The notes under the pieces: generated by a model | Database searches by the model: none | The model's input: the letters and a program-made list of their open reading frames with translations, nothing else | What the model was told of the DNA's origin: nothing | In this document: one piece after another, positions 12,564 to 57,575 of the stretch | Layout: each line of letters starts with the position of its first letter | Position numbering within the stretch: position 1 is the stretch's first letter | Program-made: the position numbers and the translations under genes | Assembly: GCF_024700885.2 (NCBI RefSeq) | Contig: NZ_CP117014.1 | DNA length: 64,000 nt | Direction: 5' to 3' (one strand) | Source of the DNA: Escherichia coli | GTDB taxonomy: Bacteria > Pseudomonadota > Gammaproteobacteria > Enterobacterales > Enterobacteriaceae

Positions 12564-12850
12564 CAGAAGATGTGCTGGTTTAAGGCTGCAAATTGCAGCC
12601 TTTTTTGTGCCTTAATGGTGTCTAATTAGTGTTGAACTGGCACCAGTTAGGTGCTGTTATGGTGCAATTTTGTATCTGGTTCCAATTTAGGGCTGATTTC
12701 GTGTTAAATAGGATGCAATATAAGGTGTATTTGGTCTGATTGATGTTATACTTTGCCAAACATTCATGACTCCATTATAGAGCCTGTCCCGCATCAAAAA
12801 GGCTCTTATCTGGAACCGTTTTGATACCAAAATCACACCGAGGAACGGAT

Positions 12851-13492
12851 ATGATTATATTGGTAGTCAGCCAAAAAGGTGGCTGTGGAAAATCAACCAC
12901 AAGCGTAAACATCTGTGCGGAGCTTGCCCGCGCAAATAAGGATGTAGTGTTACTAGATGCAGACAAGCAAGGAACAGCTGCCCGCTGGGCAGCTGACCGT
13001 AACACGGCAGAGGTTTCTCCTGTAATTCATTGTGTCCAGAAGTTTGGTAATATTCGAGAAACACTTCTCGATCTGGATAAGCGTTATGAATTTGTTGTTG
13101 TTGATACAGCCGGGCGCGATAGCAAAGAGATGCGTACAGGCATAACCGCTGCAGATATTGTGTTGGTCCCATTCAGACCATCTCAACCAGATTTAGACAC
13201 GCTGGCACACTTTGTTGAAGTGTTTGAAGAGGCTTTGGACCTGATGCCTAATCCTAGCATTAAGGCGTTCGCAGTCTTAACAATGGCCCCATCCAATCCG
13301 GTTGTGAATGAAACCAATGAGGCCAAAGAGTACCTGGCTGAATATCCGCAACTGAAGTTGCTGAAAACCATCATTCGTGATCGTAAGGTTTACCGCGATT
13401 GCATGGCTGAAGGGAAGGGCGTTGTTGAGATGGACAACGGGAAAGCTAAAGGTGAAATCCAGATGTTGGTTAAGGAGTTATTAAGTGATTAA
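12851..13492 (+). CDS. parA: small Walker-type partition ATPase (ParA/ParF class, type Ib)
   Basis: Starts MIILVVSQKGGCGKSTTS, a deviant Walker A. About 213 aa with no N-terminal HTH. RBS is gaggaa. Confidence 0.8.
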   Translation: MIILVVSQKGGCGKSTTSVNICAELARANKDVVLLDADKQGTAARWAADRNTAEVSPVIHCVQKFGNIRETLLDLDKRYEFVVVDTAGRDSKEMRTGITAADIVLVPFRPSQPDLDTLAHFVEVFEEALDLMPNPSIKAFAVLTMAPSNPVVNETNEAKEYLAEYPQLKLLKTIIRDRKVYRDCMAEGKGVVEMDNGKAKGEIQMLVKELLSD

Positions 13493-13772
13493 GCCTCGTA
13501 AATCGGTAAAAGCCCCCGAAGTAAAAGACCCCGATCTTGAACGCCGAATTGAGGATTTTGCAAGTAAGGCTGATTTGGTGCCGGGTGAGCAACCAGAAGA
13601 CAACAAAGTGCTCGATAAGGACGCTCCACGTGATTTTAAATCTATTCGTGTTGGTTTCAATGAATACGAGTACCAGGTACTTGATGCGTTGAGCAAAAAG
13701 CATAATCGCAGCAAATTGAATATGATCCGCCATGCTATCCTCATGTTAGCGGAGTCTGAGGAAGCAAAATAA
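13485..13772 (+). CDS. ParG/RHH-like partition adaptor
   Basis: 95 aa. GTG start with an aaggag RBS, overlapping the parA stop. The C-terminal segment FKSIRVGFNEYEYQVLDALSKKHNRSKLNMIRHAILML fits a ribbon-helix-helix. Confidence 0.5.
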   Translation: MIKPRKSVKAPEVKDPDLERRIEDFASKADLVPGEQPEDNKVLDKDAPRDFKSIRVGFNEYEYQVLDALSKKHNRSKLNMIRHAILMLAESEEAK

Positions 13773-14040
13773 AGTCTTTCAGGTTGGTTTTAGAACTTAA
13801 AAAGTCTTGAACCAAAGGTGCACCAATACACCACTAATTTGGTGCACCTTTACATCCTTTTTGGTTCCAATTGTGTACCATTTGTCATTAATTTACTTAT
13901 GCGCAAAAGTGGGCTTCATGAAAAAGCTCATTATTGAAATAACGATAGAAAGTAATTTCTAATCAACTAGTGGTTGTCAGCCTATTCGGCTTATAAGATC
14001 ATACGCTGTTATACGTTGTTTACGCTTTGAGGAATCCACA

Positions 14041-15702
14041 ATGAGTGAGGCAGAAGCCCGCCCGACTAACTTTATTCGTCAGATCATCGATGAAGATCTG
14101 GCCAGTGGTAAGCACACCACAGTACATACCCGTTTCCCGCCGGAACCGAATGGCTATCTGCATATTGGTCATGCGAAATCTATCTGCCTGAACTTCGGGA
14201 TCGCCCAGGACTATAAAGGCCAGTGCAACCTGCGTTTCGACGACACTAACCCGGTAAAAGAAGATATCGAGTACGTCGAGTCGATTAAAAACGACGTTGA
14301 ATGGTTAGGTTTTCACTGGTCTGGCAACATCCGTTACTCCTCCGATTATTTTGACAAACTCCATGCCTATGCTGTTGAACTGATCAACAAAGGCCTGGCG
14401 TATGTTGACGAACTGACGCCGGAACAGATCCGCGAATACCGCGGCACCCTGACGCAGCCGGGTAAAAACAGCCCGTACCGCGACCGCAGCGTTGAAGAGA
14501 ACCTGGCGCTGTTCGAAAAAATGCGTGCCGGTGGTTTTGAAGAAGGTAAAGCCTGCCTGCGTGCGAAAATCGACATGGCTTCGCCGTTTATCGTGATGCG
14601 CGACCCGGTGCTGTACCGCATTAAGTTTGCTGAACATCACCAGACTGGCAACAAGTGGTGCATCTACCCGATGTACGACTTCACCCACTGCATCAGCGAT
14701 GCGCTGGAAGGTATTACGCACTCTCTGTGTACGCTTGAGTTCCAGGACAACCGTCGTCTGTATGACTGGGTACTGGACAACATCACCATTCCTGTTCACC
14801 CGCGCCAGTACGAATTTTCGCGCCTGAATCTGGAATACACTGTGATGTCCAAGCGTAAGCTGAACCTGCTGGTGACCGACAAGCACGTTGAAGGCTGGGA
14901 TGACCCGCGTATGCCGACCATTTCCGGTCTGCGTCGTCGTGGTTACACTGCGGCTTCTATTCGTGAGTTCTGCAAACGCATCGGCGTGACCAAGCAGGAC
15001 AACACCATTGAGATGGCGTCGCTGGAATCCTGCATCCGTGAAGATCTCAACGAAAATGCGCCGCGCGCAATGGCGGTTATCGATCCGGTGAAACTGGTTA
15101 TCGAAAACTACCAGGGCGAAGGCGAAATGGTCACCATGCCGAACCATCCAAACAAACCGGAAATGGGTAGCCGTCAGGTGCCGTTTAGCGGTGAGATTTG
15201 GATCGACCGCGCCGATTTCCGCGAAGAAGCTAACAAGCAGTACAAACGTCTGGTGCTGGGTAAAGAAGTGCGTCTGCGTAATGCTTACGTCATTAAGGCT
15301 GAACGCGTGGAGAAAGATGCCGAAGGCAATATCACCACCATCTTCTGTACTTATGACGCCGACACCTTAAGCAAAGATCCGGCAGATGGTCGTAAAGTGA
15401 AAGGCGTTATTCACTGGGTGAGCGCGGCACATGCGCTGCCGGTTGAAATCCGCCTGTACGATCGTCTGTTCAGCGTGCCGAACCCAGGTGCTGCGGATGA
15501 TTTCCTGTCGGTGATTAACCCGGAATCGCTGGTGATCAAACAGGGTTTTGCTGAACCGTCGCTGAAAGAAGCGGTAGCGGGTAAAGCATTCCAGTTTGAG
15601 CGTGAAGGTTATTTCTGCCTCGACAGCCGCCATTCTACGGCGGAAAAACCGGTATTTAACCGCACCGTTGGGCTGCGTGATACCTGGGCGAAGTTAGGTT
15701 AA
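14041..15702 (+). CDS. glnS: glutaminyl-tRNA synthetase, full length, host-like
   Basis: 553 aa with class I HIGH (HIGH) and KMSKS-type (VMSKR) motifs. From memory it differs from E. coli GlnRS at only a handful of positions and at the last residues (..TWAKLG). Confidence 0.95.
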
Positions 15703-15730
15703 TAGGTATTTCGCCACATAAAAAAGTAAA

Positions 15731-15752
15731 CGCCGCTACTGCGGCGTTTTTT
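15731..15752. terminator. bidirectional rho-independent terminator between glnS and dmt
   Basis: CGCCGC-tact-GCGGCG stem flanked by an A-run and a T-run, sitting between convergent genes. Confidence 0.6.
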
Positions 15753-17907
15753 ACTTCATTATTGCAATTATATCGTTAGCAACTACACGTGTTGACGCCT
15801 TGCAGGACACCGACCGTCTGGCTGCCATATGATGTACTTTAAACCCGTTTCGTTCATATAGTTCACGGATGTTTGGCGCACCACTATTTGTTATCACTAC
15901 CTTAGCGCCGCGCTGGTGGGCTTCCACCAATAGAGATACCAGCCGTTTCTGTTCGTCGAAACGGAAGCTATTTCCTGAATAACTGGTAAACCCTTCTGTA
16001 TCCGGCAGCGGTTCATACGGCGGATCGCAAAAAATCACATCGCCTTCACCAGCCGCCTCGATGACGCCAGCAAAGTCACCTGATACAAAGGACGTGTTTT
16101 TGAGTACGTCATCAGCCAAAAATGCCTCCATCTCTGCATGTGGGAAGTAGGGCGCTTTGTATTTGCCATACCCCACGTTGAACTCGCCATTTTGGTTGTA
16201 CCGCGTTACGCCATTAAAACAGTGCCGATTAAGGTACAAAAAGGCGGCAGCATGATGTAGCTGGTCATACTTTCCTCTGTTAAATGCCTCGCGCACTTCG
16301 AGGTAAGCGTCAGCGTTGTTGTAATTTTTGAAAAAACTATATGCCAGCGTGACGAGCGAATGTCCCTCTCGCTGCAATGTCTGATAGAAGTTAATCAGGT
16401 CACCGTTAATATCATTAAGCAGGTTGTGGCGAAATCCTGCATTCGTAAATACGGAACCGCCACCAACGAATGGTTCTATTAACCGCTTGCCGTGTGGTAG
16501 ATGCTCAAGCACTGTAGGCAACTCTGAGAATTTACCGCCTACCCATTTGAATATTGGGCGTTCATATTCATCCGGAGTCCGGAGTTTTCTTGTGTAGGTA
16601 ATGGTATTTATTGTTTTTTGCTGTTTATCCGCTACGGTCGCAAGAATGCGACACCCTATCCATTGCATAACAGGAACTGCCATGCTGTTGCCGATCGCTT
16701 TGTAACGCGGTCCGTCAGCTGCAAGCATCGCGGCCTCTTCTTCGCTTAAATCTGGATAGTGATTGCGAAGGTATGCCAGTTCATCTGAAGAAACTTTTTT
16801 ACGCTTTTCCGTAGGGATCAACGTGTGCCCGTCAGGAAAGCCCTGCAGGCGTTCGCACTCGACAGGCGTTAAGCGACGTACTGCCACTCCGACGTTCGCA
16901 CTGTCAAAAACAGCCAGGTCGGTTGCATCCTTAAAATCTCTGGCCTTGACCGTGGAAGCCGCCTCATCATCCGCATACTCACCAAATGCTACCATCCGGT
17001 AAGCACCGACAAGCCCACTTCCGCGCTGTGAAAAAATCTCCTGGTTGCTTGCACCCGTCCCGCCGGTATTGTGCGATCGGGCAAGTGTCGGGTGAGGATT
17101 TACAGGGTTATCCCAATGGCTCCCGCTTTTAATGCCATTTCCAACATTTCCGGCAACTTCCTTCCCCTCGCCTCTGCTCGGCGCAATATCCCGGCGCACG
17201 CCTTCGAACTCAAAAAGTACCGTTGCGGGATCGAGGTCTGTTCGAGCACTTGCGACAACAAACACGCGTCGGCGTCGTTGTGCCACTCCGAAGTATTGGG
17301 CATCAAGTATTCTCCAGGCCACCTTTCGCTGCGGTCCATAAATACAACCACACTGCGGCCACTTTGGAGCATGGCAACCGGTTTTGCCATCCCACCGCCA
17401 GAACGCGTTACTTTTTCCTGATTCAGGTCGATCACCTGGTTCAAATGGTGCATCTTCTCCAGCCAATCCGGCAAGGAAACATCCGAAGGCGTTATCTGCC
17501 GATGACAGGACTCCTGGGACATTTTCCCAGACGATAACTGTCGGTTTGAGGAAGGACTCAGACCGTTTGTCGTCAATTGCATTTGCAAGCTCCACATACT
17601 TCAAAGTTAGCGCGCCGCGCTCATCATCAAGCCCACCACGTAATCCCGCGATACTGAATGCCTGACAAGGTGTTCCCCCGACGAGCACATCAGGGGATTC
17701 GATTTCCCCAGCCAGGACTTTTTTGGCAAGTTTTGTCATATCGCCAAGGTTGGCGATATGAGGCCAGCGGTGCGCAAGAACGGCAGATGGAAAAGGCTCA
17801 ATTTCAGCAAACCACGCCGGACGCATACCCAACGGTTCCCAGGCAATGCTCGCGGCTTCAATTCCACTGCAAACTGAACCATATCGAAGGTTAACGTTCT
17901 GCTTCAC
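15751..17907 (-). CDS. dmt: bifunctional DNA methyltransferase (N-terminal C5-cytosine, C-terminal Dam-like N6-adenine)
   Basis: C5 motifs are present: [35 protein letters not shown]. Dam motifs follow: [13 protein letters not shown]. The likely start is GTG at 17907 after a GGAGG RBS. The track ORF extends to 17979, overlapping rdgC. Confidence 0.85.
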
Positions 17908-18796
17908 CGCCAATGGCCTCCACCAGCGCGTTAAACAGTGCAGATAATTCGCCCGTAAAGAGCACGAAATCAGCATCAAATCGTTGTGCTACATCCTCCC
18001 GGTCGATATCGTCATTCTGGTCATAGAGATCATCACAGAATGTCAGGGCTTTGATACTCATATCATCGTTGACTCTGAACGACGCGCGTTCCATCCAGTT
18101 AATTGCAACGGTCGTAGCTACTTTCCCCGCCTCAATGTGAGACATAATCTCGTCGGACTGTAGATCAACTTTGTTGCAGCGAACGGCACCACCATTATCG
18201 AGCAGACCCTTTAATGTGGCGTCTTCACCTGCTGTAAATCCGGCAGGGAAGCCGCTTTTAAACCACTCGGTCATTGTAATTTCCAGCGGTTCGCGTGGTG
18301 TGAATGGAATGACAGGCAGGCTGCCGAGCGATTTTCGCAATAAAGCCAGCTGGTCCTCTGCCTTTTTGGCGCTGCTTGCCTCAACGAATACCAGATGGTT
18401 GCTGCGGTCGATCAGGATTTTGGCAAGTGATTTTCTCGTGAACGCGCGAGGCAAAAGTGAATGCAGGACTTCATCTTTAAGACTGTCTCTTTCCGTTTTC
18501 TTCAGCTTGCGGGCTTGCTCTTCTTCGAGTTTCAGGACTTTTTTCTGCAACTCTTCCTTGAGCACCTGCGAGGGGAGAATTTTTTCTTCTCGCTTATGCT
18601 GTATTAGCAGAAAACCCTGGTATTCATGTGTGAGGTTGTCACCAAGAACGGAGGTCCAACCAGCTTTAGCCATATCCTGAGAACCGCATGGGGTAAACAC
18701 AAACTTGCTAAGGGCTGCATTTACTTCTGCAGTATCCCAGCTAACTTCGCGTGAAAGACGATAGATGAAGATATTTTTGAAAGCGACTGATCTCAT
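17891..18796 (-). CDS. rdgC: RdgC-family recombination-associated protein
   Basis: 301 aa. From memory it is collinear with E. coli RdgC ([77 protein letters not shown]). Confidence 0.85.
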
Positions 18797-56096: not shown

Positions 56097-56280
56097 CGCC
56101 GTGCTCTTCCGGCTGTCACACCGAATCGCCAGGATGGTGAATCCGCAGTCCGACGCTATGAACGGGGCTTGCACATTCCGGCTACCTGGTGTGCCCATGC
56201 AGTGTTAGTAAAAGGTACCTAACAGCTACACCAGACCGCTAACGACGCATGTGCCATACGCCGTGTTACAACCAAATGTG

Positions 56281-56356
56281 GTGGCCCCTACCGGACTTGA
56301 ACCGGTGACCGTGCGATTATGAGTCGCCCGCTCTAACCACTGAGCTAAAGGGCCAG
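56281..56356 (-). tRNA. tRNA-Ile2 (anticodon CAU, lysidine type) or Met
   Basis: GGCCCTTTAGCTCAGTGGTTAGAGCGGGCGACTCATAATCGCACGGTCACCGGTTCAAGTCCGGTAGGGGCCACCA forms a cloverleaf. From memory it is close to E. coli ileX. CCA is encoded. Confidence 0.85.
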
Positions 56357-56785
56357 ATTACTGTTAATTACGCTTACGCTTTTTGCCAGAACCGCGTAAG
56401 GCTTTTGCCGCTTGCTCTACCCCGTATGCAACCACCAGCAGAAACAATAATGTCCACTCCGGGTTTTTATCGGCAAACGCCCAAAAATCCATCACTTGCA
56501 GCCACCTTTTAAGACAAAACGCCATTGCTGTTAGGTTGCGGTGCCGGGCGCCTCCCGGTGACGTTAACCAGTTAACAATTAACGCCGGATCACTTATGGA
56601 TTCTCGTTACGCCAGTAAAAAGACCACCTTTACTGTTTTAACTGTTCCGCGTGCGCTTAGCCGCATTCACCGCAATGGTAAGAGCATTTGGCTGACTGGG
56701 CGGCGATGACGCCTGTACGCATTTGGTGATCCGGTTCTGCTTCCGGCATTCGCTTAATTAGCCAAATACCCTTAATGTTGCACTG

Positions 56786-56872
56786 GCGGAGAGTAATGGA
56801 ATCGAACCATCATCGCTTGCGCAATGGGACGGTTTTCAAGACCGCTTGAGCACCATGCTCCCTACTCTCCCG
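56786..56872 (-). tRNA. tRNA-Ser (anticodon UGA), class II with atypical D arm
   Basis: Acceptor GGAGAGT/ACTCTCC, discriminator G and CCA. Anticodon stem-loop GCGGT-CTTGAAA-ACCGT. Long variable arm and T arm GATGG-TTCGATT-CCATT. The D arm (GAGC-ATGGT-GCTC) lacks the GG. Confidence 0.65.
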
Positions 56873-57002
56873 TTATTGTGGCGACCGGTGCTGATCTCCG
56901 GCTTGCGGTTATTTCAGACTCTCACGGGCGTTTAATTGCCCCGCCGAACAGCTCTTTTCCGCAATAGCTGCAATGTCTTTCGCGCATCAGCCTGCGCATT
57001 CA

Positions 57003-57102
57003 CCACAATGTTGAGAACACTGGTTGTCACGCTGCAACGCAACATTTATTCGTAGATTGGGATATGACCCCGTTACGCCAGTGTTCTCAACGTTGTAGTG
57101 CC
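57003..57102. repeat. box-hairpin element B
   Basis: CACCACAATGTTGAGAACACTGG / CCAGTGTTCTCAACGTTGTAGTG: 23 positions (21 Watson-Crick pairs, 1 GU, 1 mismatch) with a 54-nt loop. Confidence 0.55.
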
Positions 57103-57238
57103 GGTTACGGTTCCGGCCAGACCTCTTCCTCAACGGGGTGTTCTCCATACGGACTACCGTTTATTGGTCGTTCCTGCGGTTTATGTTGTGAAGCCAGATG
57201 CTTATCTTCTGGTTGCTTCAAAGAGCTGCACTTCATCA

Positions 57239-57325
57239 CAACGGTAAGAGCATTTATGGCTCGCATCGCGGGAAAAAGCCCACGGTAGAGAGTCGAACTC
57301 TACAAATGCTCTTACCTGTTGTGTT
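57239..57325. repeat. box-hairpin element C containing a T-arm-like hairpin; abuts the tRNA-Thr 3' end
   Basis: The outer stem is CACAACGGTAAGAGCATTT / AAATGCTCTTACCTGTTGTG (19 bp, 1 bulge). On the minus strand the inner region reads GTAGAG-TTCGACT-CTCTAC, then CGTGGG-CTTTTT-CCCGCG. Confidence 0.55.
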
Positions 57326-57326
57326 G

Positions 57327-57402
57327 GTGCCGGTTAACGGGATCGAACCGCTGACCATTCGCTTACAAAGCGACTGCTCTACCAACTGAGCTAAACCGGC
57401 AA
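57327..57402 (-). tRNA. tRNA-Thr (anticodon UGU)
   Basis: GCCGGTTTAGCTCAGTTGGTAGAGCAGTCGCTTTGTAAGCGAATGGTCAGCGGTTCGATCCCGTTAACCGGCACCA; the anticodon loop is TTTGTAA. Confidence 0.85.
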
Positions 57403-57406
57403 TTTG

Positions 57407-57493
57407 GTGGGGAGTGATGGAGTCGAACCACCCGAGTCGCAATGACAGTAGATTTACAGTCTACCCCGCTACCCCTACGGACTAACTCCCCTA
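57407..57493 (-). tRNA. tRNA-Tyr (anticodon GUA), class II
   Basis: GGGGAGT...GTAGA-CTGTAAA-TCTAC, a long variable arm, T arm GGTGG-TTCGACT-CCATC, acceptor 3' strand ACTCCCC, discriminator A and CCA. Confidence 0.8.
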
Positions 57494-57498
57494 AATTG

Positions 57499-57575
57499 GC
57501 GATGGTGGGTGGATTCGAACCACCTACCGAAAGCTTAGAAGGCTGCTGTTCTATCCTACTGAGCTACACCATCAC
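57499..57575 (-). tRNA. tRNA-Arg (anticodon UCU)
   Basis: Acceptor GATGGTG/CACCATC, discriminator G and CCA. The anticodon loop is CTTCTAA and the T arm GGTGG-TTCGAAT-CCACC. Both the anticodon stem and the D stem contain mismatches. Confidence 0.7.

Follow-up and report, generated by a model that had tools for sequence, protein, structure and literature searches.

Origin and evolution of a chromosomal-type glnS gene carried by D6-clade phage-plasmids of Escherichia coli

Why should a temperate phage that is maintained as a plasmid carry a complete gene for an essential translation enzyme which its host also possesses, where did that gene come from, and what might it do there? The locus that raises these questions lies in a 64,000-nucleotide stretch of Escherichia coli DNA (RefSeq assembly GCF_024700885.2, contig NZ_CP117014.1; the whole stretch is hereafter called the window), in which glnS, the gene for glutaminyl-tRNA synthetase (GlnRS), sits between a partition module (parA and a small open reading frame, ORF) and a DNA methyltransferase gene (dmt). 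It is rare for a temperate phage-plasmid to carry an essential translation enzyme. By sequence comparison the window is a D6-clade, P1-related phage-plasmid: positions 13400-16300 are 100% identical to the E. coli plasmids NZ_CP021537 and NZ_CP035876, the parA-glnS-dmt region is collinear with phage D6 at 98.7% nucleotide identity over 2.9 kb (99.6% for the GlnRS protein), and the plasmid relatives that we retrieved are typed rep_cluster_1704.

The presence of glnS on D6-type elements, together with the obvious hypotheses for its role, has been known since 2018-2019. In the D6 annotation the gene (orf62) is listed as 'glutaminyl-tRNA synthetase, similar to E. coli GlnS', and a 2019 study of D6-like prophages in Salmonella ST213 (PMC6799933) reported glnS in all D6-like genomes, termed it a moron and suggested, by analogy with cysS of plasmid pBT1, a role in host fitness or plasmid maintenance; where that study discusses the gene, it credits the original D6 observation to Gilcrease and Casjens (2018). 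The gene of the window is the glnS of D6 and of pYU39_89, with position and junctions unchanged and no material difference, and the window is thus a further member of a known group. What we add is the empty site found in a sister clade, a relic segment within the gene, and the mosaic structure of its alleles. We are highly confident that the identity and the evolutionary history of the plasmid gene, as read from these comparisons, are as described in the following sections.

The plasmid gene encodes an Escherichia-type GlnRS

The gene under study is the following:

14041-15702, plus strand: glnS coding sequence (CDS) for a 553-residue glutaminyl-tRNA synthetase (ORF list, TIGR00440, Pfam, structure alignment)

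Its product matches the NCBIfam glnS equivalog TIGR00440 with 1067 bits (cut-off 425.8) across profile positions 1-524 of 524, and scores above the Pfam cut-offs for PF00749, PF03950 and PF20974, which represent the class I catalytic domain and two anticodon-binding beta-barrel domains. It aligns over its full length with solved structures of E. coli GlnRS (e.g. 1o0b and 1gts), and its HIGH and VMSKR motifs are those of the E. coli enzyme. The window and host proteins share 548 of 553 residues. Relative to K-12 GlnRS the only internal substitutions are V97I, Q106K, I112V and D510E, while the C-terminus reads ..TWAKLG* in place of ..TWAKVGE*, so that position 552 is changed and residue 554 is absent; at the nucleotide level this tail consists of in-frame point changes (GTA GGC GAG TAA to TTA GGT TAA TAG). 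The original prediction, which was made from the letters of the window, had described an almost residue-for-residue E. coli GlnRS of 553 residues with scattered substitutions and a TWAKLG end, and this description proved exact against K-12, down to every peptide motif it quoted.

The substitutions are not, as far as the alignments go, new phage-specific changes, since three of them (V97I, Q106K and I112V) fall in a relic block that is polymorphic among plasmids, and since Ile97 is also the Salmonella and Citrobacter state. V97I is thus probably an older state that has been retained rather than a new change. None of the changed positions is among the residues that we take to contact glutamine, ATP and tRNA-Gln in the 1gts and 1qtq structures. 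Taken as a protein sequence, the plasmid GlnRS is almost certainly a complete and active copy of the Escherichia enzyme. The chromosomal gene of E. coli (b0680; PDB IDs 1gts, 1qtq and 1o0b) has the same motifs, domain order, promoter hexamers, Shine-Dalgarno sequence and terminator stem. It differs in its position, lying between nagE and chiP instead of between partition and methylase genes, and the plasmid CDS is 2.6-3.6% diverged from every chromosomal E. coli allele.

A single insertion and an empty site in a sister clade

Each of the 17 D6-clade alleles that we examined has 553 codons and the KLG* tail, and the left and 3' flanks are identical throughout. On the other hand, four relatives lack glnS altogether (Shigella dysenteriae NZ_CP026816, Escherichia marmotae NZ_CP099353, and E. 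coli NZ_CP104667 and NZ_CP098907), and these are 72-89% identical to the window in the flanking phage genes. In these four plasmids only a spacer of 115-137 nucleotides, which holds an unrelated GCCCC/GGGGC terminator, separates the small ORF from the 3' end of dmt, so that the empty site joins window position 13770 to 15727-15743. The junctions and tail shared by the 17 alleles and the empty site in the sister clade show that glnS entered a single time, in the ancestor of the D6 clade, at the boundary of dmt and the small ORF downstream of parA.

The high identity to chromosomal glnS, and nothing else, could make one think of a chromosome-plasmid assembly chimera, a concern that the original prediction itself had raised. 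The chance of this is negligible: the region is 100% identical in two independent complete plasmids and 98.7% identical in phage D6, and the same junctions recur in about 100 plasmids, including those of Salmonella, in which the resident glnS is just 85% identical. It is this recurrence over independent assemblies that rules the chimera out.

An old capture with a relic of the first allele

The original prediction had taken the gene to be a recent capture from an enterobacterial chromosome. Its view of the source is upheld in that an Escherichia chromosomal origin is supported, whereas its view of the age is not. The 5,426 complete E. coli genomes hold 5,427 chromosomal copies, to which the window CDS is 96.4-97.4% identical, and no chromosomal allele among them exceeds 97.4%. 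Chromosomal alleles differ from one another by 1.0-2.6% (n=7), and plasmid alleles by up to 4.4%. Trees of CDS nucleotides 1-830 recover the unconverted plasmid alleles as a clade in 100% and the E. coli chromosomal alleles in 99% of bootstraps, and place the plasmid clade outside E. coli and E. ruysiae together in 82%; the mean distances in this region are 4.0% between plasmids and E. coli, 4.4% between E. coli and E. ruysiae, and 1.7% among E. coli chromosomes. The divergence is concentrated in one segment:

14127-14409, plus strand: relic segment of the first captured allele, CDS nucleotides 87-369 (variable-site map, fixed differences)

The 18 sites at which the unconverted plasmid alleles show a fixed difference from 7 E. 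coli chromosomal alleles all fall in this segment, whose divergence is 6.4%, and at many of the 18 sites the plasmid state is that of Salmonella, Citrobacter or E. ruysiae. By these measures the plasmid glnS is an old and not a recent capture: the junctions and tail are shared, none of the 5,427 chromosomal copies comes closer than 97.4%, the relic is strongly diverged, and the sister clade has an empty site.

A search for the donor located the junctions and matched no donor allele, E. coli reaching at most the 97.4% given above. E. ruysiae was considered, since its protein (99% amino acid identity) comes top among the species representatives listed, which do not include those of E. coli, E. 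albertii, E. fergusonii or E. marmotae; it was rejected as its glnS is 95.4% identical to the window in nucleotides, which is below the E. coli range. A foreign origin of the divergent block at CDS nucleotides 270-350 was likewise discarded: about 80 enterobacterial and gammaproteobacterial glnS loci yielded no better match than E. coli, with at least 12 differences against 10. The donor was an Escherichia-level chromosome of a kind that modern complete E. coli genomes do not include. As a separate observation, the three plasmid alleles L088, L116 and L118 have in common a 3' block (CDS nucleotides ~1250-1650) that differs at 16-18 positions from every chromosomal allele sampled and forms a second divergent segment.

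Mosaic alleles and exchange with resident chromosomal glnS

On the variable-site map the polymorphisms that plasmid and chromosomal alleles have in common come in blocks, and over nucleotides 831-1650 plasmid and chromosomal alleles are each monophyletic in 0% of bootstraps. In this 3' half the window-type alleles group with chromosomes of the KOr021/PK8261 type and the D6/pYU07-18 allele with those of the K-12/O157 type, the latter even where the host is Salmonella. The relic block itself occurs in nested intermediates that carry 0, 4, 6 or 10 chromosomal-type positions. Among 16 plasmid alleles (plasmid pAPEC2016 excluded) the four-gamete test failed for 936 of 2,628 informative site pairs, and compatibility between neighbouring sites is much greater than when the order of sites is permuted (0.197 versus 0.356, with 0 of 2,000 permutations as low). 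In pAPEC2016, the most striking mosaic, there are 0 differences from chromosomal alleles over nucleotides 1-830, a tract internal to the region of homology. Other mosaic blocks recur in a number of independent records, and the D6-type allele occurs in a Salmonella host, where an E. coli allele could not have entered through mis-polishing. We found no Salmonella-type patches in the plasmid glnS of Salmonella-hosted elements, and none is expected at an identity of only 85%.

These patterns show that since its capture the plasmid gene has swapped segments many times over with the resident E. coli glnS by homologous recombination, and that its alleles are mosaics as a result. The tree of the 3' half is host-like because recombination intersperses plasmid among chromosomal alleles. 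This bears on a further point, as the original prediction had named a ubiquitous and ancient gene with a phage-like tree as the picture opposed to its own: the age of the gene and its near-ubiquity in the D6 clade agree with that picture, the phylogeny, being host-like, does not. The gene was captured once and long ago, a relic of that allele survives, and host alleles have patched the rest time after time; this may hold modest interest as a natural example of an essential gene whose mobile and chromosomal copies evolve in concert.

Selection on the plasmid copy and the state of the host copy

The ratio of nonsynonymous to synonymous substitution rates (dN/dS) is 0.02-0.05, both against chromosomal alleles and among plasmid alleles. 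Variants private to the plasmids, as defined against a panel of 8 chromosomal alleles, comprise 58 synonymous and 9 nonsynonymous changes where 78% nonsynonymous would be expected (p about 1e-28), and the fixed changes of the relic segment comprise 15 synonymous and 3 conservative nonsynonymous ones. No truncated or deleted glnS was seen among the D6-clade alleles examined, and the sole frameshift stands in one error-ridden record. Taken together, the low dN/dS, the excess of synonymous changes and the confinement of the only disrupted copy to that record indicate that the plasmid glnS is kept as a protein-coding gene under strong purifying selection. The record in question is pSa1423-90k (NZ_MK356557.1, from Salmonella), whose glnS we considered as a pseudogene and then dismissed as sequencing error in view of 78 gap openings and 105 gap positions in 2 kb; its annotation is fragmented and it looks like an uncorrected long-read assembly.

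The chromosomal glnS locus with its flanks is retained in 5,419 of the 5,426 E. coli genomes. Both copies were verified in strain 25403 and in the Ec-050 lineage, where the chromosomal ones are full-length, and neither in the genome set nor in these checked carriers was there a sign of loss or decay of the chromosomal gene.

The captured transcription unit and its neighbours

The features that surround the coding sequence are, in order:

12821-13492, plus strand: gene for a ParA-type partition ATPase, upstream backbone (Pfam AAA_31, CbiA, MipZ, ParA; 'ParA-like partition protein' in the D6 annotation)
13485-13772, plus strand: small ORF downstream of parA, with which the backbone ends ahead of the insert (ORF list; called RHH, for ribbon-helix-helix, in the original prediction)
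13771-13953, no strand assigned: spacer with repeats, candidate partition site or operator (repeat search, chromosomal comparison)
13954-14040, plus strand: captured glnS promoter and leader (homology to E. coli chromosomes, promoter scan)
15728-15749, no strand assigned: bidirectional Rho-independent terminator for glnS (plus) and dmt (minus) (terminator scan, downstream alignment)
15751-17979, minus strand: dmt, fused C5-cytosine and Dam-family N6-adenine methyltransferase, convergent to glnS (PF00145, PF02086, D6 annotation)

The left edge of homology to the chromosomal glnS locus varies with the E. coli lineage compared and lies at 13954 or 13973, which is 70-90 bp 5' of the ATG; the homology takes in the promoter hexamers, the GATC of the -10 hexamer, the Shine-Dalgarno sequence and the whole CDS. 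The promoter scan places a sigma-70-like promoter at 13974-14002, with a -35 hexamer TTGTCA (13974-13979), a spacer of 17 nucleotides and a -10 hexamer GATCAT (13997-14002), inside which lies a GATC Dam site (13997-14000); a Shine-Dalgarno sequence, GAGGAA, follows at ~14029-14034. On the right, BLAST homology ends at 15692-15698. A breakpoint within the last glnS codons is nevertheless ruled out, both by the in-frame nature of the tail changes and by the native type of the terminator stem, AAACGCCGC/GCGGCGTTT, which recurs unchanged in the glnS terminator of a number of E. coli, Salmonella and Citrobacter chromosomes. The hairpin, at 15728-15749, sits directly past the dmt stop codon. Modern E. 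coli carry a REP-type sequence between the glnS stop codon and the terminator, whereas the plasmid copy has none. Because the stem is of the native glnS type and the tail is only point-changed, the captured unit reaches to about 15750 and is, on this reading of the sequence, a complete monocistronic glnS transcription unit (about 13955-15750). Its GC content of 0.51-0.545 over glnS contrasts with 0.375-0.47 in the flanks. A known structured RNA in the leader or the 3' region was sought with Rfam and dismissed, as nothing rose above threshold and the sub-threshold matches were terminator-like only.

The original prediction had given the gene its own leader and a bidirectional terminator within a span of 13975-15752, which the predicted promoter and terminator bear out. 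It had expected breakpoints near 13975 and 15700; the left one agrees (13954-13973), and the right one coincides with the end of BLAST homology but not with the end of the unit. Its placement of the gene between parA with a ribbon-helix-helix gene and dmt holds for the position, the ParA-type gene and dmt. The ribbon-helix-helix label does not hold, as the small ORF at 13485-13772 has no Pfam match.

Between this small ORF and the left junction lies a spacer of about 185 nucleotides with a nest of inverted and direct repeats and no homology to chromosomal glnS loci. The repeats occupy window positions 13784-13867 (e.g. AAAGGTGCACCAA and TTGGTGCACCTTT at 13814-13826 and 13839-13851), and are a candidate partition site or operator of the ParA module; the spacer of the sister clade carries a different set, GGTACCGAATTGG-like, in their place. 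On the other side, dmt is a single ORF of 742 residues with a TTG start, which combines a C5 domain (PF00145) with a D12 Dam-family domain (PF02086). This region is split into two ORFs in the D6 annotation and is represented only by a truncated adenine methylase pseudogene in the sister clade.

Possible functions of a second GlnRS

On balance, we consider it somewhat probable that glnS is an autonomous moron cargo of the D6 clade, captured long ago, exchanged with the host gene, held under purifying selection and supplying extra GlnRS. As befits a moron, it has a predicted promoter and terminator of its own and a base composition unlike that of its surroundings, and it is present in one lineage with an empty site in close relatives. 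With 548 of 553 residues identical and the catalytic and tRNA-contact residues unchanged, the plasmid enzyme would have the specificity of host GlnRS and would charge host tRNA-Gln; ARAGORN finds no tRNA-Gln gene on the element, and the plasmid copy would simply add GlnRS activity on the tRNA-Gln of the host. The chromosomal glnS promoter has been described as repressed by Dam methylation of a GATC (Plumbridge and Soll 1987, as cited in PMC12369378), and glnS rises by +1.08 log2 in a dam deletion (PMC12369378). Because this Dam-repressed promoter, with the GATC in its -10 hexamer, has been retained, the output of the plasmid gene would be expected to scale with plasmid copy number and under-methylation, giving modest extra GlnRS in lysogeny and a rise upon lytic replication of the prophage. 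Support of translation during phage growth is in our judgement the most likely benefit, and is offered tentatively. The original prediction had put forward dosage, protection and plasmid stabilisation as possible roles, ideas that were in print before it (PMC6799933).

Several points weigh against this account. The lytic role rests on the conservation of the promoter and on analogy. Three positions in the spacer, and sequence just 5' of the -35 hexamer, set the plasmid promoter apart from its chromosomal counterpart, and the adjacent gene for a Dam-family methylase could keep the promoter methylated and so blunt any derepression. The low dN/dS could in part stem from imported chromosomal sequence that had already been under selection, and the private variants depend on the panel by which they are defined. 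The junction in pAPEC2016 is unique to that one record, which is a possible assembly or polishing chimera; for this reason it was left out of the recombination test, which is significant without it. Finally, the sister clade does well without glnS, so the gene is dispensable for such elements.

Among the other explanations is that of essential-gene addiction in the manner of cysS on pBT1, whereby the chromosomal glnS would be lowered in trans and loss of the plasmid would lead to poor growth. In that precedent growth depends on the plasmid cysS, and expression of the chromosomal gene is lowered but recovers on curing (PMC6333337); the same idea has been put forward for D6-like glnS (PMC6799933). 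The location of glnS directly past the partition module, on an element with toxin-antitoxin systems, would suit such a role, as would the retention of the gene in some 80 of the 93 D6-family plasmids of the complete E. coli genomes and the existence of a Citrobacter conjugative plasmid that bears cysS and glnS together beside higBA. Yet all but seven of the 5,426 genomes keep the chromosomal locus, and both copies are present in the carriers checked. The plasmid and host enzymes share 99% identity, whereas CysRS of pBT1 reaches 89% and has different kinetics. Nor is there an evident trans-acting repressor of glnS, and the element already has two partition systems as well as toxin-antitoxin modules. 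We regard addiction, by this analogy, as doubtful, with the proviso that sequence data cannot settle it and that the pBT1 host also had an intact chromosomal gene. A more elaborate version, which we rate as rather unlikely, is a switchable takeover: the plasmid copy would be the main GlnRS of lysogens, with the host copy lowered in trans and plasmid loss penalised, the Dam-sensitive promoter beside the element's own methylase would tie output to prophage replication and methylation, and gene conversion would move glnS alleles between E. coli lineages. Were glnS to stabilise the plasmid or aid lytic growth, it would be the second case after cysS of pBT1 of a mobile element that exploits an essential host gene, and here the element would be a phage.

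At the other extreme the gene could be a neutral passenger, a one-time hitch-hiker that is repaired by gene conversion from the selected chromosomal copy. The pervasive recombination with chromosomal alleles and the persistence of the glnS-less sister clade in the same hosts are in keeping with this, but the unconverted relic has itself 15 synonymous against 3 conservative nonsynonymous changes, and the plasmid-private variants show the same bias (58 against 9). In addition, conversion cannot undo a deletion of the whole gene, and yet the 1.8-kb unit is kept across a clade in which the par module has diverged or been exchanged, down to 76% identity, with no truncated or deleted copy in the D6-clade alleles examined bar the error-ridden record; a passive passenger is thus an unlikely reading. 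Copies of other aminoacyl-tRNA synthetase (aaRS) genes that confer resistance or self-immunity occur on plasmids and in biosynthetic clusters, and by analogy with these an extra GlnRS might serve as protection or decoy, buffering against a defence, toxin or inhibitor that hits GlnRS or tRNA-Gln. The element also carries five tRNA genes, and in other phages tRNAs can offset defences that target tRNA. Against this, a resistant paralogue would be expected to be clearly diverged from the housekeeping enzyme, with changes in or near the active site, whereas the window GlnRS is 99% identical to the host enzyme; its conservative changes lie off the catalytic motifs and are polymorphic among plasmids, so that it is no insensitive variant and could act by dosage only. 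As there is in addition no tRNA-Gln gene on the element and no GlnRS-targeting toxin was identified, we hold a protective role to be very unlikely. Least credible of these functional readings, and highly improbable in our view, is that the 1.75 kb of 96-97% identity serves as a portable homology arm for integration, mobilisation in the manner of high-frequency-of-recombination (Hfr) strains or the shuttling of alleles. The mosaic alleles do show that plasmid and chromosome recombine at glnS, but stable integration at the chromosomal locus was looked for and set aside, with 0 of 93 D6-family par modules on chromosomes in the 5,426 complete E. coli genomes, and such a function would leave the purifying selection at the protein level unexplained. 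Of all these readings, the one that we favour is that of an old moron cargo supplying extra GlnRS.

Distribution and comparison with related systems

About 100 plasmids in PLSDB, non-mobilizable and ~90 kb in size, have glnS in the same context; their hosts are E. coli, Salmonella and Shigella. The D6-family par module occurs 93 times in the 5,426 complete E. coli genomes, always on a plasmid, with ~80 plasmid places having glnS and ~13 of the 93 lacking it. The element is thus found in ~1.7% of complete E. coli genomes and also in Salmonella and Shigella, often in clinical or livestock isolates. These counts set a limit to the published statement that all D6-like genomes have the gene, in that glnS marks the D6 clade proper and is not universal in the wider D6 family. 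The survey of D6-like plasmids that the original prediction had called for thus gives a divided answer, near-ubiquity in the clade and absence from ~13 of 93 in the family.

Among 50,697 phage records, GlnRS homologues were found only in D6, in two uncultured phages larger than 630 kb and in a few metagenomic fragments, which makes D6 the sole cultured phage in this collection with a GlnRS gene. Complete aaRS genes are rare on plasmids as well, with 30 in 13,661 (PMC6785131). ARAGORN detects five tRNA genes in the window, for Met, Ser, Thr, Tyr and Arg. The notion of the original prediction that an aaRS on such an element is unusual is upheld. The GlnRS homologues of the two giant phages are 50-54% identical and are not recent host copies, in contrast to the near-identical gene on the 90-kb temperate phage-plasmids of the D6 type.

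The closest functional likeness is to cysS on pBT1, which is likewise a class I aaRS gene of host type, on an enterobacterial plasmid that is large and low in copy number and whose host has an intact chromosomal copy. The two differ in that pBT1 cysS is 79% (nucleotide) and 89% (amino acid) identical to the chromosomal gene and encodes an enzymatically weaker enzyme, compared with 99% for the window GlnRS, and in that pBT1 is not a phage; essentiality and chromosomal down-regulation have been shown for pBT1 cysS. Full-length plasmid glnS genes of host-genus type are also present on Citrobacter cronae p.S175-1.4 and Enterobacter ludwigii CM-TZ4 unnamed2. They are 86% identical to the window gene and lie on unrelated backbones, and are independent captures. 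On the C. cronae plasmid (NZ_CP060445.1, 1923-7155), which is conjugative (MOBP/MPF_I), cysS and glnS adjoin each other just downstream of a higB/antitoxin pair; the glnS is 89.9% identical to that of the nearest sampled Citrobacter chromosome, which points to another old plasmid aaRS pair. On the E. ludwigii plasmid (NZ_CP116349.1, 3788-9002) glnS is 95.2% identical to an Enterobacter chromosome and has on its flanks a dinQ toxin gene and two genes for site-specific integrases.

Several minor observations concern the make-up of D6-type elements. Their tRNA cargo is variable: the five genes of the window lie at 56279-57573 on the minus strand, whereas pYU39_89 was published with Asn, Thr, Ser and Met. 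In the D6 family the module of parA and the small ORF falls into discrete identity classes of at least 99%, ~94%, 80-84% and ~76%, with an adjacent glnS of at least 97% identity, and the same ParA protein accession is found both with and without glnS; this suggests that partition modules have been swapped between D6-family lineages. Lastly, the 216-kb plasmid NZ_CP021720.1 of E. coli AR_0128 contains a D6-type parA-glnS-dmt region that is 99.6% identical on a replicon more than twice the usual size, and may have arisen as a cointegrate between a phage-plasmid of the D6 type and some other plasmid.

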